From assembly GCA_030429145.1 (NCBI GenBank), contig JAUIDC010000001.1:570001-602000 (forward strand): a stretch of 32,000 nt of DNA, written 5' to 3'. The notes below the pieces were generated by a model. It was not told the DNA's origin. It made no database searches and saw nothing but the letters and a program-made list of their open reading frames with translations. Each line of letters begins with the position of its first letter. Within the stretch, counting starts at the first letter, position 1. Below, piece after piece: positions 3,496 to 27,113 of the stretch. Source of the stretch: Candidatus Saccharimonadota bacterium. GTDB lineage: Bacteria > Patescibacteriota > Gracilibacteria > Absconditabacterales > Absconditicoccaceae. The position numbers and the translations under genes are program-made.

Positions 3496-3894
3496 TTAGA
3501 GACTTCCGCTTGGAGTATAGCTATCGCTAAGAGGAGATGAGCTTTGTGTATTGAAGAAGTCTCCAAAGCCTTCTGAGCCGACACCCATAATTCTTTTGAT
3601 GATCTGTCCAGCTCTATTGAAGATGTTTTGTGCCGTATAGTATTGATATCCTGCTACTTTCATCTGCTTGAAGAGTATTGGAAATACAAAAAGCAGAACC
3701 AGTGTAACAATGATTCCGAGAATAGTATATCTGATATTCTTTATTGCTTTTTGGATGACGTCGTCTTTTCCGTCTGAGAAAATGAACTGAAAGATAGCGC
3801 GAAAAAGAGAGTAGATAGCTCCGGCAAATATGATAATGATGAGTATAGCCAACACGGTAAGGATAATATCCTGTATAGTGGTGTAGTTAGTCAT
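3496..3894 (-). CDS. Small two-TM membrane protein; topology resembles TrbC/VirB2-like (T4SS-pilin-like) proteins common in CPR genomes
   Basis: 132-aa ORF with two hydrophobic helices flanking ...FIFSDGKDDVIQKAIKNIRYTILGIIV.... The family call rests on remembered motif similarity only. Confidence 0.55.
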   Translation of the reverse strand: MTNYTTIQDIILTVLAILIIIIFAGAIYSLFRAIFQFIFSDGKDDVIQKAIKNIRYTILGIIVTLVLLFVFPILFKQMKVAGYQYYTAQNIFNRAGQIIKRIMGVGSEGFGDFFNTQSSSPLSDSYTPSGSL

Positions 3895-4907: not shown

Positions 4908-5480
4908 ATGACAGAAACGTTTGTACCGAGTTCTTTAGAGACGTCAGGTGGTAGTGAAACAGTCTCAGAAGCTTCTGAACAAGATATTGTCAGGGTTTCT
5001 GAAAGTATGCAGAAGGCAAAACAGATTGGCGCGCAGATCGGGGCAAGTCAGATACAAAATACGAAATTAGCTCACTTTCTCACATACCTTCTGAATACCG
5101 TACAGGATGAAAACATCTGGATCATTCTTATTGATCTCTTTTCAAAGCCGGATGTGACGACAAGTTCAAATACAGCCAATATGGCGCTGGCAGTCAATGA
5201 AATGGTAGCATTGTTTTTGCCATTTTATATGTCAAAAGTCGAGGAGCTTGATATGCAAGAACTCTTTCAAGAGGTTTCTTATCAGATTTCTCTTGATGAA
5301 CATAGCTATATTCAGTATATACATGCTTTGTATCAAGCTTATCCACTTTATGGACAACTTGATAAAGATATCTTGAGTTCTCTTCTCACGGCAATTCTTG
5401 TCTATCATGGACTGACAAAAGAAGAGGAAGAAAGAGATCTTCAGAAGATCGTTAATGAGGTGCGTGCAGCACTCGGTTAA
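4908..5480 (+). CDS. Hypothetical protein (190 aa)
   Basis: Uninterrupted ORF with ATG start and TAA stop. No recognisable motif and no TM segment. Confidence 0.6.
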   Translation: MTETFVPSSLETSGGSETVSEASEQDIVRVSESMQKAKQIGAQIGASQIQNTKLAHFLTYLLNTVQDENIWIILIDLFSKPDVTTSSNTANMALAVNEMVALFLPFYMSKVEELDMQELFQEVSYQISLDEHSYIQYIHALYQAYPLYGQLDKDILSSLLTAILVYHGLTKEEEERDLQKIVNEVRAALG

Positions 5481-5505
5481 TTTATTATATGTGTAGTTGA
5501 TAAAA

Positions 5506-6243
5506 ATGGAAATAGTGCGTATCCAATGATTGAAAAAAGTATTTCGTAAATGGAATAAAAAAATACCTGTACTAATAGGGGTAGATTTTTCAGTGAAGCA
5601 GGGTGAAATCTACGGGTTTTTGGGTGCCAATGGTGTCGGGAAAACAACACTTCTCAAGTGTCTCTTTCACTATATTTCACATCAGGGAGATGTTGAAATT
5701 TTCGGAACGAAAGACTACTATCATCAAAAATATTTTACCCGTATCGGTTACGCACCCGAAGTGACCAATCTTTATCCTTTCCTTCGCGGAAAGGAGCTCC
5801 TTCACTACATGGGGAAGCTTGCAGGTATGAAGACAAAGCTCATAGAGAAGAGATCGAAAGAGCTTTTGGACAAGCTTGGGTTGACCTTTGCTGAGGACCG
5901 CTTGATCGGAGCCTATTCAAAGGGAATGAAGCAAAGACTTTCTCTCGCAGCATCACTCATCAATGATCCAGAACTTATCTTCCGAGATGAGCCCATGTCA
6001 GGACTCGATCCACTAGGGCGTATTATCGTCAAGGACCTGATGAAAGAGCTTAAGGAACAAGGGAAAACACTCTTTTTCAACACGCATATTCTCTCAGATG
6101 TGCAAGAGATCGCGGACAGATTTGGTATCCTTCATAAGGGAAAGATTGTACATGAAGATAAACCAAGTAGTATTCAAGGATCACTCGAGGAGTTCTTTAC
6201 GAAGACTATTAGAGATATTGATAAAAATGTGAAGGTGAAGTAG
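5506..6243 (+). CDS. ABC transporter ATP-binding protein (ABC-2/CcmA-like), recoded N-terminus
   Basis: Walker [10 protein letters not shown], signature YSKGMKQRL, Walker [14 protein letters not shown]-loop NTHIL. ATG 5506 read through TGA 5527-5529 gives MEIVRIQ-G-LKKVF, the usual ABC N-terminal strand. TAG stop. Confidence 0.9.
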
Positions 6244-6336: not shown

Positions 6337-6364
6337 CAGTGGATTTTGTCCCCTGTTTTTTTTT
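6337..6364 (+). terminator. Putative rho-independent terminator after the ABC ATPase gene
   Basis: Stem cagtgg (6337-6342) / cccctg (6350-6355) with one mismatch, 7-nt loop, then T9 (6356-6364). Confidence 0.45.
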
Positions 6365-6408
6365 GATTACACTTTACATTAGAAGATTTTATACCTTTCT
6401 GTGTTACA

Positions 6409-9400
6409 ATGGGTAACGTGTTAGAACTTAGGTTACAGGCTCCAGGTATCAATGGAATTGATATTAATACAACGGAGATGGCAAAGGATTTTGCTGAACT
6501 ACAAAAGAGGTTCAGTGATGAATTTGCGAAAATGAAGGCAAGGCTTGAGCAGAGCAAGACGCTTGATGAGGCAAAGAAATTTCTCAATGATGTGCCTTTG
6601 TATGCTGATGCTGGAAATCTTACTTTGAAAGTGGGAGATAGTTATATCAAAGCAAAAGATAAGGAAGAATTTGATAAATATAAGAACGATATCGAAACGA
6701 CTATGTCGGAGATGAATAAGAAACTTGCTGAGTATGAGCAGAAGATGCTTGAAGAGCAAAAAAAGACCACAGATAACTCAAAGGGTGAGCTTGATGAGGT
6801 AAAGAAAAATGTGACGATTGAAAAGAAAGAGCAGGATGGTATTGTTCGAGAGTATGACAGGCAGACAGGTATTTCTACGTTTACGTTGGAAAATTGGATT
6901 CGCTTGAATCAGCAGAAACAGTGAGATGCTGGTAGTTCGTTCATGGTTGATCCTGCAGGCAAGATGCAAAGTAGACAAGCAAAGCAGCTTGATAGAAGAA
7001 TTGATAGACATATGGACATCAAGAACGAAAAAAGAAAAGCAAGAAAGTTAGAGAAGGATGCGAGAAAAGCAGAAAAGCTGAGAGACAATGTCGCAAGACA
7101 AAAAGACGCCATGGCTCAGATAGGTGGAGATGTAATGGGTGCCGCTGAAAATAGAAAGCAGACGCTCTACTATGAACAAGTCGCAAAACTTGCTATGGAG
7201 GAGTTTAAAAAAGGTAAATATAACGCAGAAGATACTGTCTATATCAACACATACAATCCACTGTTTACTGTCGAGGGATTAAATCCTTCTGGTAAGGTTG
7301 GTATTAGACTCACCCTTGATCAGGTTGCGCAGTACAACGAGAACATGAGAATCTCTAATGATCCTAGATTGGCACCATATCTTTCACAAGAAGACAAAGA
7401 AGTCATCAATAAGGGCGGTATCTTAGGTGCTGGAGTTGACTGGATGGTACAGCATACTAACTATCCTCCAGAAAGTGCACCAGCATTGAAATCAGCTGCA
7501 AAACTTGGTGCGATCATCGGACTAGGTATCCTTGGATGGCAGACGATTAAGAGAGTATTCAATATTGGTGGTAAGTATTCAGCTGGTGAAAGACGAGGTT
7601 GGGGACTTGGTGCACTTGGTGTGTTAGTAGGAGTCCCTGCACTTACTGGTCAGCGTATCGATCAGCTCCTTTTCAGTGGGGATGCAAAGCTTGCATGGGA
7701 AAAGACAAAAGATCTCTTCTCATCTATGGGTATAGAAACGGGAGAACTTCTTTGAAATACCGACGAGAAAGTTATGGATCCTGCTATGGGTAATCTACTC
7801 TTTGGTGGTTTAACCGTAGAGGAAGCAAGAAAATATATCACCTATAAAGATGGCAAGTACACTATGAGACAAAGTGATTTTACTAACTATCTTATAGAGC
7901 AGGAGGCAAAGGAGACGGATCCTGTGAAGAAACAAACATGGAAAGATAAATTAGCTCTTTGGAAGAAGGCCATCCTAGAAAAGAAGGCTGACAAGATTGG
8001 AAACAATTGGGGGAAAAGTATTGGACTCCATGAAGCAGCAGATAAGGATAAAACGACAGAAGAGCTCTATACTGCCTATCTTGAAGGTCTTCACCTTGGT
8101 GCAGGGCTCTTGGCAGGCGATAAGAAATTGAAGATCAAAGACCTTGATGCATTCAATGCATATGTACGTGAGCAGATTGTTGATAAGGGAAGAGATCCTG
8201 CAAGTATCACAAAGAAGGAACTTTTGGAGAAAGATCTCCTTGAAGAGGTTGTCGAAGAAGGCACGAAAGATGCAGATACGAAAGAGGATAATAATAACAC
8301 AAAAAATAATAAACAAAACAACAAACCTGCTGACAATACTGGTACAGCAGAAGATGTTGGAACTCGAGAAAAGGTTACCAATCGAACATCATCAAACTGG
8401 AAGAAGTTTAAGGGAGCTGTCGCTGCGACGGGTGCAACTATTGCGGGGTGGTTTGGTATGAAAAAGAAACCCGATTCTCCACAACTGAAAGCAGCAAAGG
8501 ATAAACTCCAAGAGATGAAAGATAATCTTGCTGAGCTAGAGGCGATGGATGAGACAAAGAGAAAACAGGTTGCAACAGCAGAAGACATTAAGGAAGCAAA
8601 GGATCAGATAAAAGATGCTGAGTATCAGTTGACGCAGATAGAAGCTATGGACAAGGCGATTGATCCTGTCTTGGAGCCACTAGTGAAAAACAAGAAGCTC
8701 TCACAAAATATGGCAGAGCAATTGACGGAAGCAAAAAACAATCTTAATCTCCAGTACGAACTGATCAATCGTAACAATCAACATGCTATGATCCACTTTG
8801 TGGAGGATCATGGACAGCTCTTTGTAGCAAGTTACAACGAACAGTTGCCTATAACTATCGCGGAAAATGCTGACAAAAAGACATTTACAGCGTCTTTGGC
8901 AGACTGTCCACTTCAGTTCAATACGATGGAAAGTCTTGTGCAGACAGCAAATTTTGTAAACTTCCTCGTAATGAACTATCAGTACACTTCGCAGGAAGCA
9001 AATCCGTTCTATGTCGATGGTGATGAGATTTCTATGAGCGGTCCTGGTATAGATAAAGATATGCTTGAGAACTTGTATCCAGATATTCGTCAGCCAAGAA
9101 CTCAGAAGTTTGTAGACTGGTTGAATAATAAAAAGGGTTCCATGGGCGTTTCAATCTGGCTGGAAACAGGAAGACCAAATAATGATGTCTTGAGAACAGT
9201 CAAAGAGCTAGAGCGTGTGAAGTTGGACTCTAGTATATATGGTTGACTTATCTCAGCCCTTCCGTGACAATATGCACGTAAGAAGATTAGCACTATGGAT
9301 GAGAGCGCTTTGAGAAAAAATGCACAGGGAGAAGTGATTGGATATGGTAAGATCGAGGCTGCGTTTGATGGTCAAGGCCTTGTGTTTAAAACACATGGTA

Positions 9401-9756
9401 GAGAGACTGCTATCATGAAAGATGGGAGAGAGTGGAAGGTAGGAGATTTTAAATACTCACTGGAAACGCCACAAGAAGCTCTTTATATAGCTAACTTTGT
9501 TAACTACTGTAAGAGGTATCTTGAATATGCTACCACTGGTACAGAGCCATTTAATATGTCGTTTACTGATAAATATCTTGAGTTTGCTCAGCATTCCGAC
9601 AGAGAGTATCGATGGGGTCTGTCAGACATTAAGAACGACCTGAAACTCGCAAGAAAAGAAGATCTTATCAGAATGTCCAATGTCTTTGCCAATAAAACAG
9701 TCAGAAAAGAGTTCGCGGCATTTCTCAATAGGACATATCCTAAGTGGCATGGATAA
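6409..9756 (+). CDS. Giant hypothetical protein A1 (1115 aa; coiled-coil-like, two Gly-rich hydrophobic segments, duplicated C-terminal module); 4 TGA=Gly
   Basis: Standard-code fragments 6409-6924, 6943-7755, 7774-9246 and 9295-9756 are all in frame 1. They are joined only by TGA (6922, 7753, 9244, 9265), with no TAA/TAG in the gaps (checked codon by codon). First real stop is TAA 9754-9756. Hydrophobic stretches: LGAIIGLGILGW and GWGLGALGVLVGVPAL. Confidence 0.8.
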
Positions 9757-9779
9757 GTATTTACTAATTGATACGCATT

Positions 9780-11819
9780 ATGTGATTTAACGATGTAGAG
9801 AAGCTACAGCCAAAAGATCAAAAAGAAACTCAGAAGAATACTTCTGAAGTTTCTGATAATGCGAAAGTGGATAAGATGCAGGCGACAGATCAAACTACTA
9901 AGGAAACAGAGATCAGTTTGATAGAGCTACAAAAGAGAATTCAACAGATGAAGGCTTCAAAGGAGTATAATGATGAGGACTTAGAGAACTTAGAAAAAGA
10001 TATTCTTGCCGCTAAAAATAATAAAGAAGTGCTCGAAAGAAAGGCGAAACAATTAGATAGTCTTGCAAAGAAGAAAGATCAGACGACAGAAAATCCATCT
10101 CTCTGGAGAAGGTTTCGGTATGGTAGCTTTCTTGGAAATATGATGGACAAGATAGGCTGGGAGTCATGAAAAGAGCGAGCTGATAAAAAGCTACATGAGA
10201 AAAAAGATACTACCAAAAGAGGGTTTCGAGGAAAAGTAGGAGACGCATTTCTTTTTGCTGGCGCATTTCTCCTAGGTAAAAAAACCTTAGGAAAGCTTCA
10301 GGATTGGTTTGCTGAAAAATTTGGAGATGAGAAAAAGGATAAAAAGCCAGATCAACCTAAGACTGTTGTAGATACTGGACAAACAGATGTCGCTCCACAA
10401 GATCAGAATCATACAACTCCTGATAACAATTTAGGAGCAGTGTTGGAGGATGATAAGACGAATCAACCACCATTGCAACATGGAGAGCAGTCGGAAATAG
10501 ATAAAGCGATAGTAGAAGAGGATAAGCTACGTGGAGACGGAGTGAATGATCTCTATATTCTTTCTCGTCTCTTAGGGATGGGATTTGTTCCAAGTAATCT
10601 CTATAGACGACGTCCTGCAAGATTTATGACAAATGCACCATGGAATTTTAAGGTTGCTTTGTCAGCGCTATTGCCATCTATGCGTGAAAGAGTAGTTCGT
10701 GAAAAAGCATATCTTATCTCTCAGTGAGTTAATCAGTATGACTATGATGCTCATCTCAATAAGCTCAGTGCTTTAGAGCAAGATATTAAGACAGGAAAGA
10801 TAACCTCTTTTGATCAGATAAAGAAGAACTATCCAGATTTAATCGATACAAAACCTTCTCGTATAGAGAAATTACTTCGTGATAAAAAATCACCACTCAA
10901 GAGAGTGAAGAAAGAGGCGGAAACAAAGATTGAAACTCTACAAGATCGTGAGCAGGCCATTAGACAAATCGATGGTGAGATGAAGAGTCTCCAAAAAGAG
11001 GCTGCGGCCAAGTATAAAGCACTAGAAGATTTAGATAAAGCCGCTGTCAAAGACCCAGCAAAGAAAAAACAATTGCAGGTGGAGTTAGAAAAAATTACAA
11101 AAGATTTTCAACGTAAACAAGCAGAACTTTATAAAAAAACAGGCGTGGCGCTACAGGGAGTTTCTAACTCTGATATTGTGAAACTCCAAAGATATCAAAT
11201 GGTAGATCATTTAGTTAAAAACAATGGAGGCCGTTTGAAGTTGATAGAGAAGATCAATGGAAGAGGTGGGAGAATTATGATGAGAGTTGGTCTGGCAGGA
11301 TTGTTCTTTAGAGCAGCTGATGATATCGCAGATCAAGGTATTCTTTCAAAGGAAACAGCACTTGATGCTGCAGATCTGGGTATCTGACTTATTCCAGTGG
11401 CTGGTGGTATTTATGACCTTGGTATGGCAATTTATGGAAAGGACCTCAATGGTAGACAGATGTCGACAGCGGATAGGCGAATAAGATGAACAGTGTGAGT
11501 TGGAACTGCTGTATTAGATTTATTCTCATTTGGTGTCGCAGGTACTGCAGTGAGAGCATGAGTCAAAACTACAACGAGAGTTGTAAAGATAGTGAATAAG
11601 ACCGTAGACGCAGAGAAAGCTATTACCAGATGACTGAAGATTGCCGATGATGTCTATAAAGGTACGAAGGTTGTCACTCATGGGGTGATGCTTGGAGGCT
11701 TGACCTACGGTGTTGCTATCAATGCATATGACCTTACCATCGCTTTGAAAGACGGAAGTGAACCGGTCATCGAGGAGATTAAAGCAAACAATACGGATGC
11801 AAGCAAATCAATTACATAA
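9780..11819 (+). CDS. Hypothetical protein A2 (679 aa; coiled-coil N-half, C-terminal pre-toxin-TG-like Gly-rich hydrophobic module); 8 TGA=Gly
   Basis: Starts ATG-TGA-TTT (MGF...) at 9780; an alternative TTG start is at 9768. Fragments 9867-10169, 10440-10727 and 10905-11387 plus the gaps form one frame-3 reading with TGA at 9783, 10167, 10725, 11385, 11487, 11496, 11559 and 11631. TAA stop 11817-11819. All gaps were checked codon by codon. Confidence 0.78.
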
Positions 11820-11842: not shown

Positions 11843-12865
11843 ATGGCACCGCAAGATACATTTGATATGTTACATGAACAACTTCAGGAAGACTCTGCTA
11901 AGCAGAAACTTTCTGCATTACAGGAGGAGATAAAGACACACATCTCTTCACAGGGCATGGGAACAGAAAAAATAGATCAGATTGGTGACGCTCTTGTCAA
12001 TGGTGAGAAGATAGATAATTTCAAACTGGACATAGATGTACTGACAGTTTCTGCATCCATGATCTATGCAAAGAGACTTTCAAAGGATATCATCCTAAGG
12101 TATCTGTCTGGTGACACACCATGGAAGAATCAATCACTCAGTTGGCGAGACTCTCTGAAAGATAAATTTGTCGATAAGATGGTGAGCCTGTTTTCAAAAC
12201 AGAAAGATGCGTATGATGCCATCTTAGCAAAGATAGAGGCTCCAGTTGTACAAAAGTTTCAAGCACAGCTTGATGCATTGAAACAAGAGGTAGGAGTTCT
12301 TCCAGATCCTAATGCTCCTCAGGGTAGCACAGATAACGCTCCTGAAACTATGCAACCGAATAAGATACCTACGTGACTACCTATTGCAGGCATGAAGAAA
12401 GAAGATATTAGTAGTGATCTTTGACATCGTGATGCACCAAAGAAAGGAGCAACGGAGGATCATAAGTGAATAGACATTAAGGTCGATGAGAATACCCCTG
12501 TGTTAGCCACTGCTGATGGAGAAGTGATTGAAGTTGGTGACCAACCAGACGGGGCCGGGAAATATATTTCTATCAATCATGGAGACTATATTACGAGATA
12601 TTTTCATCTCAACACACAGGAGGTGAAAGTGGGAGATAAAGTAAAGAAGGATAAAGTGATTGCAAAAAGTGGAGCAACGGGTAATGTAACATGACCACAC
12701 TTACACTATGAGATTAGGAATACAAAAAAGATTGCCTATCAGGATAAGCAAACAGCATCGAAATATGAGGTGCTTGATCCGGAAAAATATTTAGATTTTG
12801 ATGGTGACGGTAAGGTTGTCGCTCTCAATAGTGATGAGGTAGAAGAGACAACTATAGCAGCATAA
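11843..12865 (+). CDS. M23/LytM-family metallopeptidase domain protein A3 (340 aa; helical N-half, no signal peptide); 4 TGA=Gly
   Basis: The stitched C-half reads LPIAGMKKEDISSDL-G-HRDAPKKGATEDHK-G-IDIKVDENTPVLATADGEVIEVG...YISINHGDYITRYFHL...SGATGNVT-G-PHLHYEIR. This is the full M23 signature (HxxxD, HxH). TGA at 12374, 12422, 12467 and 12692. TAA stop 12863-12865. Confidence 0.92.
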
Positions 12866-12887: not shown

Positions 12888-15848
12888 ATGTGATTTGGAG
12901 ATAAAGGAGTAGAACTAACGAAGAAGGTTTCAGACAATGTCGATAATATGCAGATATTGGATGAAAAGAAGGTTTTGGAGCAGACAAAACATGATTTGTT
13001 GCAACTGAAAGATGATGTAAGATATGCTGAAAAGGTTTCAGATGAGTTGGCGAAAGGTGGATGGATAGACAACATCCTTGCTACAGAGCGGAAGAGAAAG
13101 CTTCACGCGCCAGAGCAGAGAGAAAAGCAGGAGGCTGTCAATCAAATAGCTGAGAAAGTTGAAGAAGTTCGTACACAGTTTGATACTTTGTCGGATGATA
13201 AAAAAGAAAAGGTAAAGAAAATGACTGTGGTGCTTCAACAGATTAGAGCAGAGCTTTTTGGTCTACAGCAACAGATTGTCGACACAAAAGCACTTGAGCA
13301 AAAAACGATAGAAGCTGCGACAAAAGAACTTGATAAACATCGGTATTCTCGCTTGCTTGTTGGGCCATATACAAAATATATTCAGAGAAGGTTTGCTTCG
13401 TTGAAACAGACTAATAAGCAAACTGACCTTTCGATCATAGATACAGTGAAGCAAGCTTTTACAGATTTTTATTATCAGGCTATCGGTGTGATTGGCTGAC
13501 GATTTGCTGGTAAATCTGTTGCGGGTATGGTAGATGGGATAAGCCTCGATGCAATCAAGCAAAAAGGTGCCGAGTTGTTGCAGCAGGTAGACCAAGTGTC
13601 TATTGATGATCTGTCTCCTGAGGCACTACAACAGGGTCAGACTATCATGAAGCGTAAGATAGACAGTTTTGTTCAAAAGCAGTTTGGCAAAAAACTGACT
13701 CCAGAACAGTTAGACCGTATTGCAAAAAAGTTAGACACGAAAGATCTTTTGCGCGAAAATAAAACGCTCCTTGATTTTCTCTCGTCATGAGGAAAGGAGT
13801 GAGCTGATGCAAACCTGTTCCATGCTGGTGTGGAGTGATTGGTATTACCTCTGTCTATGATGACGCAGCTTATCTCAGCATTAAAGGAGGAAGGAGTAAT
13901 TGATACGAAAGAGATTGTTTTCAATGTTACATGAGATGTAATAGAGTATGGGCTGAAAGGGTTCAAGCTGTTTGGAAGCGGCTTGGCATTAGTTCTTTGA
14001 AAGGTCTCTCGAGATGAGGTTGGTGGTCAGATGGCTCGCTTGTACGACAAGAGTCCAGATGAGGCAAAACAGCTTCTCTTTGCTTTGATCTATAGAGGAC
14101 AGCACTCGCCAATATTTAAGCTGATGCTCAATACAGGAGAGTGGCTTGCAAAGCTGCCTATGTTCTTCTTGGCAGACATGAATGATAGTGTCAAATCACT
14201 ATGACATATTAAGGATGTCTATAAGGGAAACATAGATACAGCTATTAAACAACTGGAAAAGATATCAGATGTCCTGCCTGCTAACTTTGGGTGAAAAGAC
14301 CTCCAAGATACTGTGAAGGCTGCTAAAGCGAGCGTTAAACAGATGAGTTCAGTCAATGACATGGTAACTATTCTTCATAACATGGATGAAACGGTTTCTG
14401 TCAGTGAATTCAAAAAAAAACTTACAAGAAATGGTATACAGATAGCTGACTTACCACCGAATATTGCGAATGAACTTAAAAATGCTACTGGAGATCTCTC
14501 AAATCAACAACTCAGAAAAATGCTTTCAAGAGATATCTTAGATATCACAAAACAGACAAAAAATGTATTTTGACAGAATTCGTCCCTCTCTAAGTTCTTT
14601 GGTAAGACGAAGGGCTTGTTGAAAGGAGAGGCGAATCCTTATAAGATGATCGATGATATGAGTCGTTATCTCGATGACGTGGGTCAGGAGTGGAGTAAAA
14701 TGGTTCATCATGGCTCATGGTTTACAAAGCAGAAAGCTAAGTTGAAATTGTCAAATAGACTGATGAATGAGACCTTGGAATCAGGTAAATTTATGTATCA
14801 CTTTGATAATGTGACAGACTTTGAAGACTTTGTGAAAAAGAGTAAGTTCTTGATGAAATCGTCTCCGAGTAGTCTTAAGTTCCTTGTAGGAAAATCACCG
14901 ATATTTATCGTATGAGGTCTGGCTGTTGGAGAGGGAGACACTATGTCGGAAAAGATGAAGTCATTGCTGACAGGATTACAGTGACTCGTGCCGTTAGTTT
15001 GACCATATTTGATCATGTCGGATGCCGGTATCATGAAAGATGGTTGACCAGATATGTGACAGCTTGCTCTCGGTGGGGTCCTCATGTGAGTAGATGGATA
15101 TACGCTTGTTAGACGCATGATGAGAAAAGATTTCGTCGGTATGGCGAAATATATGGCGCAGCCTATTGTTGATGTATGGCAGATCGGTAAGTTTTTGGTA
15201 AATGCTGGAAGAAGAGGGCTAGTTCTTGGTAAAGGTTTTGCGACACTTATGCAAAATCAAGGCAGATTAAATACGTTGAAATGAATTGGAAAGAGACTGA
15301 TGACTAAGTCTAGACTTTCAAGAGTAGGTATTTTGACGGCTGTAGCCATATGAGGGTATGTGAGTTGGGATTACCTCTTTTCATCAAATGATTTGGACAA
15401 AGAAACGAAGGATAAGTTGGCTGAATACAAGGATAATCCTGATAAGCTTGATCAAGAAATTCAGCAGAAATGGCCTACTATGACGCAAGACGAAAGAAAT
15501 GATTATCTCAGAGCGGCGGTACTTCGTCAGTGAGGATTTTCGCCTGAGTATCTAGACGATCTTGAGATAGAATTTGCGAACAATCAATATACTGTCTATT
15601 TGCCATCAGTTATCGCGCGTGATGAGGCTATCTATGTGAAAGACTTACTCAGTCAGTGAATTTCTCGTCTCCAGTCTGGTAGTAGCGTAGATGTTCGTTT
15701 TGCATGACCTGCAAGATATCGTTTCACGAAAGAGCTTACTGATCAGTTCGCTGACATCTCTGAAAATGATAGACGTGCAAAGATGGAAGAGTATGTTCGT
15801 ACTATGTGATATACAGATCCAAATATAGCACTTACAAACAATGCATAA
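12888..15848 (+). CDS. Giant hypothetical membrane protein A4 (986 aa); 22 TGA=Gly
   Basis: Starts ATG-TGA-TTT (MGF...) at 12888. Fragments 12948-13499, 13527-13790, 14313-14573 and 14616-14915, plus the fragment-free stretch 14916-15848, are one frame-3 reading with no TAA/TAG until 15846-15848 (every codon in the gaps checked). The N-third is coiled-coil-like. The rest has multiple Gly-rich hydrophobic segments. Confidence 0.8.
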
Positions 15849-15873
15849 ATAACATATTTTTTTGGATATGAGA

Positions 15874-15906
15874 AAAGCTACGGTTAATACCCCGTAGCTT
15901 TTGTGT
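15874..15906 (+). terminator. Rho-independent terminator closing operon A (possibly bidirectional)
   Basis: 10-bp stem aaagctacgg (15874-15883) / ccgtagcttt (15892-15901), 8-nt loop, T/G-rich tail. An A-run on the 5' side would serve the convergent gene. Confidence 0.65.
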
Positions 15907-15929: not shown

Positions 15930-16448
15930 TTAGTTTGTAGTGGTTTCGACTCTTGCGTCAGAACCAAAATGATAATGGAGATTATAGGTGTCCCCCTGAT
16001 TGTCATTTGGTTGCTGGGCATTATCGGCATTTGAGCCACGACCACCATTTCCGCTTCCAGTCCCAGCAGGAGCTCCAGGCCCGCCATAATACACGTTAGT
16101 GATTACTCCACGTTGGGTGCTGTTGCCAGAACAATTTCCACCACCGTAACCCTGAGGAGGTTGGTTATATTGATGTCCTCCTTGGTTCTGCTGGCCAGGT
16201 ATATAATTGCTGTGGTCTGTAGGACGTTGGTTTGCTGGCTGATTGCCATTGTTCCTGTTCCTTCTGAGTCGGTTGTAAAGCCAAACGCCTCCTAAGGTAA
16301 GTCCGATTGCAATGATAATAACCACAATAATCCAACCCCAACCTATGCTACTACTGGTAGAAGTGTTGCTAAGGTCCGTTTGTACGTCTTGCGCTTTTGC
16401 GCTGATCATAGCGGCGATTGCCGCCAATGTTAAAGTTAACTGTTTCAT
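15930..16448 (-). CDS. Hypothetical signal-peptide plus single-TM protein with a G/N/Q/P-rich tail (172 aa)
   Basis: Begins MKQLTLTLAAIAAMISAKAQ (signal-peptide-like), then the TM segment IGWGWIIVVIIIAIGLTLGGVWLY, then RLRRNRNNGNQ and a low-complexity tail. No TGA codons; TAA stop. It is the only minus-strand gene inside the accessory region and is locally GC-richer. Confidence 0.6.
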   Translation of the reverse strand: MKQLTLTLAAIAAMISAKAQDVQTDLSNTSTSSSIGWGWIIVVIIIAIGLTLGGVWLYNRLRRNRNNGNQPANQRPTDHSNYIPGQQNQGGHQYNQPPQGYGGGNCSGNSTQRGVITNVYYGGPGAPAGTGSGNGGRGSNADNAQQPNDNQGDTYNLHYHFGSDARVETTTN

Positions 16449-20957: not shown

Positions 20958-20985
20958 TTGACATAAAACCATTATTCTCTATAAT
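20958..20985 (+). promoter_or_regulatory. Consensus sigma70 promoter upstream of ORF 21017
   Basis: TTGACA (20958-20963), 16-nt spacer, TATAAT (20980-20985). It begins 3 nt after the B3 stop codon. Confidence 0.6.
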
Positions 20986-21016: not shown

Positions 21017-21943
21017 ATGGCTAAAAATCATAAAAACCAACGTCATCATCACGAAACTTCTCAGGACAGTGCTGAGAAGAAGAAACAGTGAAATGAAAAG
21101 CTGGTGGAAGAGACAAAAGAAGAGCTGGCAGATACTCTGAAAGAAGAGAAGGAGTCTGGTCATAAGGCAGAAAAGCATGAGAATCATGATGAAAATAGAG
21201 ATGCAAATGATACAGAGCAGAAGATCGCAATGAAGAAAGCTCAGCTTCATGCGGCAGAGCCTGTACTAGAAGAGAAAGACCCAGAACCTGCAGCAAAAAA
21301 ACCTTCAAAATCAAAGAAGGAAAGAAAGATAGATCGAAACCCATTGAATTGGGTAAGACATATTGGTACAAGAGCTCTTTCTGGTATCGCTTGATTGCCT
21401 TCAAGAGTTGCAGCAAAGTTCAACCATATAGTGGCAAGACCACAGCAACTAGTAAGCGGAAAGTTTTATAAAGATTTGGGAAAAAACGTTATTAAGACTC
21501 CTGGAGCGATGGTGACGACTGTTACCGGTGCAGTATACAAGCCACATCGTGATAAGGTGAAATTTGAAGATAATTTTAAGGATTATGGTCCGACATTTGG
21601 GCCCGATGCAAAAGATAAGAACTGGTTTGTGAGGAATGGGAAAAAGGCTTTATGGTTCGGTGGCAAATTTGCTATGCCCACCCTGACAGCAGGTACGTGG
21701 TCACTATTTCCTAAGTTCTTTGCCAATGTAGGCAGAGGTCTCAACCATGTTATTCATGAGACGTTTGAAGGCATCAGAGACTCTAAATGGCATTGGAATC
21801 CTAAGAATTGGAACCTTAAGACGTGGAAGTTTAGTAAGACAAAAGAGTCCTTTGGAAAAGCTTTCTCACGAAATAAGAAAGGTAAGTCTCCCGAAGGTAA
21901 GACTATTGCTCTCTCGCCAAAAGAAGAAAAGAAAGCTGCATAG
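21017..21943 (+). CDS. Hypothetical basic protein (308 aa; K/E/H-rich N-half, W/K/G-rich C-half); 2 TGA=Gly
   Basis: From ATG 21017, fragments 21104-21394 and 21395-21943 are in the same frame and joined by TGA 21392, with another TGA at 21089. TAG stop. Confidence 0.65.
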
Positions 21944-23951: not shown

Positions 23952-26900
23952 ATGTCATTTGCTCCACAGCAGCCGAAACCGGATCTGTATGCGTTAGATC
24001 AGCTTATTTTGCAATGATGGAAAGATAATCATATTTTTGAGAAATCTATTGAGCAGAGACCAGAGGATCAACCATATCGTTTTTATGATGGACCTCCATT
24101 TATTACGGGATTGCCTCACTATGGTCATCTTGCAGCTTCAGTTGCAAAAGACGCGATACCAAGATTTTGGACGATGAAAGGAAAGAGAGTGGATCGTGTA
24201 TGGTGATGGGACTGTCACGGTATTCCTATTGAACAAAAAGTACAATCAAAGCTTGGGCTTGAGTCGAATATAGATATTGAGAAGGCTGGTATAGATCGCT
24301 TTATAGAAGAGTGTTATACATATACTCGTGGCATGTCGGCTGACTGGAACTACTATATTGATAATATTGGACGCTGGGTGGATATGGAAAATCCATACCG
24401 TACGATGGACAATGACTATATGGAGTCTGTGTGGCGAGTCTTTAAGGCGCTCCGAGAAAAGTGATTGATCTATAAAGGAAAGCGTGTGTCTATGTACTCA
24501 ACGAAGTTAGAGACTCCTATCTCTAGTTTTGAGGTTGCTATGGATGACACCTATAGTGACGTAAATGATCCTACGGTAACAGTTATGTTTGATCTTTCTG
24601 CGAACGGTGATGAGTGGAAAGATACCTATGCATTGGCATGGACGACGACACCTTGGACTATCCCTGCAAATATTGCGCTTGCTGTAAACAAGGAGCTAAC
24701 GTATGCAAAGGTTGTATGTGATGCAAGTAGTTTTATAGTAGCAGAGAAGAGAGTAGAAGAAGTATTTAAAGGGAGGGTTTTTGAAATTGTTGAGACATTT
24801 ACAGGAGATGAACTTGTATGAATGTCATATAAGCCACCATTTGATTATCTCTATGGTAAGACGAACAATGAAAAAGACCATAAGATCTATCATGCAGAGT
24901 TTATTACTGATGAGGATGGTACTGGTATTGCTCATGAGGCACCAGAGTTTGGTGATGTAGACTTTGAAATGGCGCAGAAAGCATGATTGACCATCACCGA
25001 AGCAATGGACAGTAGTGGACACTATACGACGCTCATTGATGATTTGGTTGGAACATTCTATCGCGATGCAAATCCGATTGTTATGGAGAGATTGCAAACT
25101 ATGTGAAGACTTTTCGCAAAGTGAAATATAACACATCGTGTGGCGTTTTGTCCAAGATCAAATACGCCTCTTGTATACAAGGCTCAAGATAGTTGGTTTG
25201 TGAACATTCAAAAATTGAAGCCAAGATTGCTCGAAAAAAATGAAGAAATAAACTGGTTTCCAAATCACTTCAAGTATGGTCGTTTCCAAAAGTCTATCGA
25301 GGCAGCGCCAGATTGGGGCATCTCTCGTACAAGATACTGGGGGACACCTATGCCTATCTATGTATCTGAAGACGGGAAAGATATGATCATCATCTGATCG
25401 AGAGAGGAGCTCTATGAGTTCAGTAAAGAAGGAAGTGCTAATGTGGAGAAAAGAGAAGTAGAGGGTAAAGTAGTTTATTGGAATACAACAAGAGACGAGG
25501 AACTCAACATGCACCGTCCGTATATTGATGACGTATGGCTTTCAAAAGAAGGAAAAAAGTATACTCGTATCTCAGAGGTATTAGACTGTTGGGTAGAGTC
25601 TGCAAGTATGCCATATGCACAGATTCATTATCCATTTGAAAACAAAGAAAAGTTTGAGGGACAATTTCCTGCAGATTACATTGTCGAGTATACGTGACAG
25701 ATACGTGCATGGTTTTATGTGATGCATGTGATAGGTGTCGCATTGTTTGATAAACCTGCATTTAAAAACGTAACGGTTACGTGAGTACTTGCTGGTAATG
25801 ATGGACGCAAGATGTCAAAGAGCTTTGGAAACTATCCAGATCCAAGAGACTCTTTAGAGCAGTATGGTGGCGATGCAATTAGAATGTATCTTTTGTCATC
25901 ATCTCTTTTCGCTGGCGGAGATCCAGCGGTCTCTGAGGATTACTTTGGAGAGGCCCTCAAAAATTATATTCTTCCTTTCTGGAATGCGTTCTACTTTTTT
26001 GTCACCTATGCAAATATTGATAAGTGGGATGAAAAAGACAAAGTATATGATCCTGCAAAAGTGAAGCATCCACTAGATAGGTTTTTGTATGCAAAGGTAC
26101 AGGAGTTGATTACAACCGTAGAGGAATCGATGCAATGATATGATCTTATGCGTTCATCTCGTGCATTGGGCAACTTCTTAGATGACTTAACCAATCGATA
26201 TATCCGTCGTAGTAGAAGAAGATTTTGGAAAGAGGAAGAAGATCAAGATAAAAAAGATGCTTATGCAACTCTCTATTATGCGCTTGTCAACTTCTGTCAA
26301 GTCGCTGCTCCATTTATGCCGTTTGTCACTGAGTATATCTATCAAGTGCTTACTGGGAAAGAGTCTGTGCATTTGACAGACTGGCCAACAGCGCATTTGC
26401 AAGATACTGATAAAGAGCTTTTACAAAAAACAAAACAAGCACAGGATGTCATCTCTATCGTTTTGGCAGCACGTTCGAGAAAGAACATTCGTGTGCGTCA
26501 ACCATTGCAAAGTGTTACTATTGGAGTGGAGATAGATGAGTACTTCCAAGCTATTGTCGCTGATGAGTGTAATGTAAAAGAGGTTTCGATAGATGCTACT
26601 ATCAATGCATTGGTGACAAAGATATGTAAACCTGATGGCAAGTATGTAGGCGAGACTTTTGGTGCAAAGACAAAGGAGATATTTGCTGCAGCAAAGTCGG
26701 GTAACTTTACGGAAAATGAAGACGGTAGTGTTACAGTTGCCGGAGAGACTCTCCCTTCATGAACATATGAAATCAGTTATATAAAGGCTGACGCTTCACA
26801 AGATCTAGAAGTCGATAACGGTATTGTTGTGAAAATAGATTGGGCCATAACGCCAGAGCTAGAGCTCGAAGGTTATGCAAGAGATCTTGTGAGATTGATA

Positions 26901-27113
26901 CAAGATGCCCGTAAAGAGGCAGATTATCATCTTGCTGATAGAATATCTCTTTCTATTACATGAGACCATTTGGCTACTTCTTTGATAGCGCAATTTGCTG
27001 ATTATATCCAAGACGAAACATTGTCTACTGTTGTCGACATTAATGACAAACCTGATATCTCTAAAGAGGTAGAGATCGGATGACAAACGATCGTCTTTAG
27101 CCTACAGAAATAA
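23952..27113 (+). CDS. ileS: Isoleucyl-tRNA synthetase (1053 aa); 14 TGA=Gly
   Basis: SD-like AAAGGGGAG lies upstream of ATG 23952. Motifs: [13 protein letters not shown] (HIGH), [12 protein letters not shown] (TGA 24204), [30 protein letters not shown] (TGA 25695), KMSKS (25809-25823). All track fragments (24465, 25140, 25443, 25812, 26148) are in frame 3 and joined only by TGA. TAA stop 27111-27113. Confidence 0.95.

Follow-up and report, generated by a model that had tools for sequence, protein, structure and literature searches.

A leaderless M23 peptidase in a hypervariable giant-protein operon of an Absconditabacterales genome: a candidate wall-cutting cargo of a host-contact locus

How could an enzyme built to cut peptidoglycan reach any cell wall if it is made without a leader? 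The question is raised by gene A3 (positions 11843-12865, + strand), which lies in the 32,000-nucleotide stretch analysed here (the window), positions 570001-602000 of a single 936,577-bp chromosomal contig of a 97.8% complete genome (G000) classified in the Absconditabacterales of the Patescibacteriota. Like other Patescibacteria, the SR1/Absconditabacteria live on bacteria of other kinds or kill them. Under genetic code 25, A3 is predicted to encode a modular peptidoglycan endopeptidase of 340 amino acids, and it is the third of four genes in a tight + strand operon, A1-A2-A3-A4, with spacers of 22-23 nt. The explanation that we prefer, and to which we give about an even chance, is that A3 is a wall-breaching cargo or effector of a host-contact locus, exported by a route other than Sec. 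We consider it a candidate host-contact tool because it has an intact catalytic domain and no export signal, because its catalytic cassette has been swapped among relatives, and because it is encoded in a fast-evolving operon of giant proteins near genes of a type IV secretion system (T4SS). No description of this locus was found in the literature searched; new here are the M23 variant of the cassette, the rare N-terminal module, the tree pointing to repeated exchange and the linkage to T4SS genes.

The A3 protein

Translation table 25 leaves 340 codons open at 11843-12865, with four in-frame TGA codons at 12374 (G178), 12422 (G194), 12467 (G209) and 12692 (G284). TGA is read as glycine in A3: in alignments G194, G209 and G284 stand opposite conserved glycines of standard-code M23 proteins from Vibrio and Bacillus, and the tryptophans found at the TGA sites in a public database copy of the same protein are an artefact of translating TGA as Trp. 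The sequence-only reading of this DNA had stressed that TGA codons lie in or next to the active-site motifs, and that the enzyme therefore exists only under code 25. The latter is true, but it holds for every gene of a genome that uses code 25. The idea that it means something where the TGA codons fall in the motifs was rejected, as their placement is at chance level: among the 15,706 glycine codons of long open reading frames genome-wide 15.5% are TGA, and 4 of the 23 glycine codons of A3 are TGA (P = 0.49), which is typical for the genome. The public copies P0002, P0122, P0124 and P0125 either end prematurely, at their first TGA codon (177, 193 and 164 aa), or have TGA translated as Trp, with tryptophan inside the HxGxD and TGPHLH motifs, so the family escapes routine searches. 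The closed genome G001 (OZ246420.1), from the same genus, is titled 'Candidatus Peribacteria' and has genes with many in-frame TGA codons for glycine; the label looks wrong because the lineage is TGA-recoded.

A3 belongs to peptidase family M23, as judged by its motifs, an above-cut-off profile match and a LytM-type beta-fold. The Pfam Peptidase_M23 profile matched residues 206-295 with E = 1.2e-29 and 102.7 bits (cut-off 28.7). All five zinc or catalytic positions are kept in the alignments: H207 (12461-12463) and D211 (12473-12475) of the HxxxD motif, H246 (12578-12580), and H286 (12698-12700) and H288 (12704-12706) of the HxH motif, which bears out the earlier claim that both metal-binding motifs are present in an intact M23 domain. 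The domain aligns without gaps to ShyA of Vibrio cholerae, the TGPHLHYE segment being identical. The AlphaFold2 model of A3, made from a 49-sequence alignment, had a mean predicted local distance difference test score (pLDDT) of 82; the score exceeded 90 in the M23 domain, and an extra confident extension reached to about residue 330. From Pfam, Foldseek and the ungapped ShyA alignment, the M23 (LytM-type) domain together with this subfamily-specific C-terminal extension occupies 12398-12811. In Foldseek searches of the PDB the domain matched DipM, ShyA, Csd, lysostaphin and LytM with E values of 1e-12 to 1e-8, the probability being 1.00 for DipM, ShyA, LytM and lysostaphin.

On the basis of these alignments and models the best explanation of A3 is an active M23 zinc enzyme that cleaves peptidoglycan as an endopeptidase and comes nearest to MepM and ShyA, which cut cross-links. 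MepM of E. coli and ShyA of V. cholerae (PDB 6ue4, 6u2a, 2gu1) have the same catalytic fold and all the zinc and catalytic residues, with ~40% ungapped identity over the domain. They are, however, housekeeping enzymes exported by Sec, and they have LysM or auto-inhibitory domains. A3 lacks a leader, its helical N-module is unrelated, its C-terminal extension is that of its own subfamily, and its operon is hypervariable. A loop within this M23-specific extension (D-x-D-G-D-G-K-V; residues 318-323, 12794-12811) is similar to calcium-binding loops of the EF-hand or dockerin type. It occurs also in the M23 form of G128, a genome of another genus (E-G-D-G-K-V), and is absent from the NlpC/P60 forms described below.

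A3 is leaderless, as had been read from the sequence, and a leader can be excluded. Going upstream in frame, the first stop is met at 11780-11782, and the 20 codons between it and the ATG of A3 contain no ATG, GTG or TTG and spell a peptide that is not a leader. A cryptic signal peptide that might have emerged after revision of the start site was looked for there and not found. The maximum 19-residue Kyte-Doolittle mean anywhere in A3 is 0.78. As an internal control, a hydrophobic leader stands at the start of each of the other two M23 proteins of the genome (genome positions 220499 and 434962).

The catalytic domain is preceded by the N-module (residues 1-150, 11843-12292), a rare all-helical part without a known fold relative, and by a disordered linker rich in Pro, Asn, Ala and Thr (residues 151-185, 12293-12397), in which the catalytic cassettes are joined. 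AlphaFold2 predicts the N-module as a bundle of about nine short helices; the N-half had been described as helical and coiled-coil-like, of which the helical character holds and the coiled coil was not shown. In the linker the pLDDT falls below 50 at residues 160-169, and the homology to congeneric proteins bearing an NlpC/P60 domain stops there. The N-module has a very narrow distribution. A HMMER search with residues 1-175 against 1.84 billion cluster representatives gave six matches in all: A3 itself (P0122, which ends at the first TGA), its true relatives P0123, P0124 and P0125, and two apparently spurious repeat proteins. There is no paralog in the genome itself. A profile search of 141 genomes of the family found the N-module only in three genomes of genus g1, the GTDB species (named-genome) collection contained it only in the two congeners G001 and G002, and it was absent from the JGI metagenome contigs. 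For the whole chain Foldseek returned only two lookalikes, EnvC and a cyanophage pre-ejectosome protein, each with a root-mean-square deviation (rmsd) of ~30 Å, so the likeness is one of domain order only.

The protein ends in a short tail (residues 324-340, 12812-12862) of the form K-V-V-A-L-N ... A-A-COOH, whose final 10 residues are disordered in the AlphaFold2 model. Both the M23 and the P60 forms have K-[VL]-V-A-[LM]-N and then, up to the C-terminus, some ten polar residues, and all six hydrolases of such clusters terminate in A/V/T-A, an ending whose rate in the proteome is 2.3%. Among 826 proteins of at least 100 aa the tail motif was found only in A3 and in the 308-aa protein encoded at 21017-21943 (shuffle expectation no higher than 0.05), but, having been defined post hoc after the sequences had been seen, it is a lead and not evidence of a signal. 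The tail of the 308-aa protein reads G-K-T-I-A-L-S ... A-A and resembles that of A3.

Cassette exchange and hypervariability of the A1-A4 operon

The partners of A3 are large proteins, all leaderless. A1 (6346-9756, +) is a giant in which no known domain was recognised; its hydrophobic, Gly-rich segments lie around residues 378-440. A2 (9768-11819, +; 683 aa) has such segments at residues 537-655, and A4 (12888-15848, +; 986 aa) is conserved best in a hydrophobic hairpin, residues 663-712. Each of the three has two or three Gly/Ala-rich, moderately hydrophobic segments, and hairpins of this kind would be typical of proteins synthesised in soluble form that enter a membrane afterwards. The operon is closed by a terminator-like hairpin with an 11-bp stem at 15873-15902 (+). 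A sub-threshold PT-TG match (E = 0.003), seen in A2, and a VirB5-like 'T4SS' match of the giants (E = 0.001) were below the cut-offs and were not used. A wide protein search with A4 gave no match, most likely as its 22 TGA codons break up the public gene calls.

In the congeners G001 and G002 the gene order is kept (a 185-190-aa protein, the ABC ATPase, A1, A2, the hydrolase and A4), and the position of A3 is taken by proteins of 350 and 354 aa in which the N-module is joined to an NlpC/P60 domain. The same domain follows the N-module in P0123. In G128, A2 and A4 are followed by a 439-aa leaderless M23 protein with a cassette 52% identical to that of A3; in G003 three giants, and in G095 two, are followed by leaderless NlpC/P60 proteins of 401 and 363 aa, respectively. 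In the loci of G003 and G095 the hydrolase gene comes after the giants; in the operon described here it is the third of four genes and carries an M23 cassette. The locus is chromosomal and syntenic over at least three genera. Had the homologs always been stand-alone housekeeping LytM factors, a special role of A3 would have been hard to defend; instead, its full-length relatives in other genomes occupy this position of the giant-protein operon.

Seven N-modules were placed in a maximum-likelihood tree, and modules with M23 and modules with NlpC/P60 are interspersed in it: an M23-bearing module pairs with a P60-bearing one at 95/93 support, and G000 and P0003 form a separate M23 pair at 100/100. 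This interleaving forces at least two exchanges of the cassette. Trees with a single exchange were not found among 200 bootstrap trees (0/200), the tree being a small one. A3 is thus a modular protein whose cassette has been exchanged repeatedly.

The operon is also hypervariable, and A3 shares in this. Between G000 and G001 the flanking proteins are 61-82% identical, the VirB4-like ATPase 82%, the fused pilin 76% and the ABC ATPase 67%, against 27% for A1, 35% for the N-module of A3 and 32% for A4. A2 of G000 found no match in G001 at E <= 1e-5, and its identity to the protein of G002 is 36% over just 110 aa. Overall, A1 is 27-28% identical to its congeneric counterparts, and A1, A2, A4 and the N-module fall between 27 and 36% within the genus, while VirB4 is 82-85% identical. 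The M23 cassette shows no such acceleration: it is 52% identical to that of genus g2, and in the same genome pair NifU is 54% and IleRS 45% identical. These comparisons indicate that the giants and the N-module diverge fast together and that the catalytic cassette evolves at a normal rate. Such a pattern would be expected were the N-module the part that fits the giants.

Type IV secretion genes and other neighbours

The cluster is linked to T4SS genes. Genome positions 565589-569724, immediately before the start of the window, contain a module of three genes. One encodes a VirB4-like ATPase of 715 aa (P-loop_TraG, E = 1.8e-24), another a membrane protein that is polytopic, and the third a protein in which T4SS pilins are fused (E = 6.6e-12). 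The module is ~12 kb and ~12 genes upstream of A3, in the same arrangement as in G001. The linkage was assessed in G000 and in all four other genomes that have both loci on one contig; in these five (G000, G001, G002, G128 and G095, from three genera) the distance between virB4 and the cluster is 5-20 kb. A protein of 1083 aa similar to T4SS coupling proteins is encoded at genome positions 613054-616305, ~30 kb downstream of A3 and 11 kb past the window end; it matches TrwB_AAD_bind (E = 2e-7) and TraG-D_C (E = 1.3e-5) above the cut-offs and has one hydrophobic segment. This candidate coupling protein sits far from virB4. A small protein with two transmembrane segments (3496-3894, - strand) has a sub-threshold T4SS_pilin match (E = 0.004) and, because it is conserved beside rpsP in G001, could be a further pilin that does not belong to the T4SS module. 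The T4SSs of Patescibacteria go back to conjugation systems of monoderms and are mostly without relaxases, and in Gracilibacteria most T4SS components escape profile detection (PMC12102498). In the only species studied by genetics the system is essential. Its role has been called 'completely unknown', effector delivery being a matter of speculation (PMC11665869); it was suggested that they may export proteins, but no substrate was named (PMC12102498, PMC10633639, PMC11665869).

The head of the cluster (4908-6243, +) consists of genes for a 190-aa leaderless protein and an orphan ABC ATPase of the DrrA/ABC-2 type, both conserved in the congeners. The ATPase gene (5497-6243, +) has no permease gene nearby, and its product is 67-80% identical to those of the congeners, unlike the giants that follow it. 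Downstream of A4 are B1, B2, B3 and the gene of the highly charged, leaderless 308-aa protein (21017-21943, +), which has its own promoter at 20958-20985, a perfect TTGACA-16-TATAAT. A leader was found in none of the neighbouring + strand proteins of the cluster, and a Pfam or PHROG family in none but the ABC ATPase. The only minus-strand gene within the cluster, at 15930-16448, encodes a protein of 172 aa with a signal peptide, one transmembrane segment and a glycine content of 15%. None of the regions fetched from the congeners had a homolog of this protein, which is a possible immunity or partner protein. The window further contains fusA (88-2193), ileS (23952-27113), rpsP, two tRNA genes, atpG, pth and infB. 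The possibility that the cluster is a recent genomic island beside the tRNA genes was rejected, as GC content and composition are uniform and synteny is conserved.

Possible roles of A3

The sequence-only reading had proposed that A3 needs a non-Sec route out of the cell or acts as a cargo or effector of the neighbouring giants. As an argument from comparison this proposal fits both the co-divergence and the cassette exchange, and it is the best supported of those considered here. A3 would be made without a Sec signal and would leave the cell by another route, for which the best candidate is the neighbouring minimal T4SS; alternatively, the giants of the operon might build a conduit by means of their hydrophobic hairpins. 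Once outside, A3 would open the peptide cross-links of peptidoglycan at the place where an episymbiotic or predatory cell of the SR1 type touches its host. Its build would suit delivery, with a helical N-module, a flexible linker, an exchangeable wall-cutting cassette and a short shared tail. The lineage-specific N-module probably ties A3 to the co-encoded giants, and it is possible that A3 docks on A2 or A4.

Several effector families offer a parallel. The X-Tfe effectors of the bacteria-killing T4SS of Xanthomonadales, the Tae/Tle-type effectors of type VI secretion and the LXG toxins of type VII secretion lack, like A3, a Sec signal, and like A3 they combine a delivery part with an exchangeable enzymatic part, are polymorphic between close strains and have a secretion machine nearby. 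In A3, unlike in these effectors, the conserved module is N-terminal and lineage-restricted, and the producer is a monoderm bacterium of the Candidate Phyla Radiation. X-Tfe proteins have an XVIPCD domain and a cognate immunity lipoprotein, whereas at the A3 locus neither was detected and the short shared tail is a different one. Type VII secretion of an LXG protein was rejected as an explanation, since there is no LXG match and no EssC-type ATPase; a genome search for FtsK_SpoIIIE returned FtsK proper and one weak match.

A number of observations weigh against the export reading. That A3 is secreted at all is inferred, as are its route, the protein with which the N-module pairs, and its target, the wall of the host. 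A Pfam scan of A3 finds only M23, thus none of XVIPCD, LXG, MIX and PAAR. No immunity gene is evident, and the 22-nt gap between A3 and A4 contains no small open reading frame. When the N-module was modelled alone the result was weak (pLDDT 62), with a best Foldseek E value of ~1, and it showed no detectable homology to the N-regions of the g2 and g47 hydrolases (hhalign probability 0.8%). Searches with A1, A2 and A4 in Pfam, PHROGs and the PDB, by sequence and by profile, gave nothing above noise. The tail motif, besides its post hoc definition, is short. Finally, the linkage to virB4 is proximity only: fusA, rpsP and tRNA genes lie in between, the related genomes are not independent, and five further, fragmented genomes have the two loci on separate contigs and are uninformative.

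Among the rival explanations, it is unlikely that A3 is a VirB1-like helper that cuts the cell's own wall locally for the assembly of the T4SS, a pilus or an apparatus of the giant proteins. Monoderm analogues of VirB1 do interchange M23, CHAP/NlpC-P60 and lysozyme domains, and PrgK (pCF10), TraG (pIP501), CwlT (ICEBs1) and TcpG (pCW3) are, like A3, hydrolases of varying domain type encoded near virB4. The known analogues, however, carry an N-terminal membrane anchor or a signal peptide, which A3 lacks, and they are encoded inside the T4SS operon, whereas A3 is co-transcribed with the giants and not with virB4. Nor would a role at the cell's own wall give a reason why, within a genus, the N-module and its operon partners fall to ~30% identity next to a VirB4 conserved at 82-85%. 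What speaks for such a helper is its distance of ~12 genes from virB4, within the 20 coding sequences by which the neighbourhood of T4SS components has been defined (PMC12102498), and the finding that in Southlakia, where the T4SS is essential, the virB4-adjacent peptidase and lysozyme genes are essential too (PMC12102498, PMC10633639). We consider it improbable that A3 is a cytoplasmic or lysis-released hydrolase without an export route of its own, such as an autolysin freed by lysing cells or a domesticated phage protein of the ejection or endolysin type. The absence of a recognisable export signal would agree with this, and leaderless M23 domains do occur in phage ejection and tape-measure proteins, as shown by the PHROG matches and by the structures 9k2v and 9m7n (Gp16). 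T7 gp16 and the cyanophage A4 pre-ejectosome have leaderless hydrolase domains as A3 does, and phage ejection proteins travel with large leaderless partners that insert into the target envelope, A3 likewise having large leaderless neighbours. The PHROG and PDB matches are, however, confined to the M23 domain, no holin, integrase or phage structural gene lies in the cluster, PHROGs gave no match for the neighbours, composition is uniform, and the locus is chromosomal and syntenic.

Least probable of all, and in our view very doubtful, is a division hydrolase of the FtsEX-EnvC type, in which an ABC transporter, powered by the ABC ATPase nearby, holds the helical N-domain and switches M23 on at the septum. 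This was suggested by the ABC ATPase at the head of the cluster and by the whole-chain likeness to full-length EnvC in the FtsEX complex, which also has a helical N-part and a LytM C-part. But in this superposition domain order alone matches, the N-part of A3 being predicted as a bundle of short helices with no long coiled coil. EnvC-type proteins are Sec-exported and usually catalytically degenerate, whereas A3 is leaderless and intact, and division proteins are not hypervariable. Moreover, the Pfam FtsX profile (PF02687), which did respond in 13 of 14 control genomes, was without a match in this one, and the ATPase of the cluster is DrrA/ABC-2-like (6.8e-54) rather than FtsE (1.5e-25). With no FtsX-family permease detected and an ATPase of this kind, an FtsEX/EnvC role is disfavoured.

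The reading of A3 as an exported wall-cutting cargo can be carried one step further, to a picture that we think rather unlikely but worth stating. A1-A4 would be the first substrates of a patescibacterial T4SS and would form an 'ejectosome-like' kit. The leaderless giants with their glycine-zipper hairpins would be pushed out and insert into the host envelope as a feeding or attachment conduit, and A3, with M23 or, in sister lineages, with NlpC/P60, would travel along by means of its N-module and cut the peptidoglycan of the host. Both the hypervariability and the exchange of cassettes would be driven by an arms race between the symbiont and its host. A3 thus offers a concrete candidate for the missing cargo of the patescibacterial T4SS.

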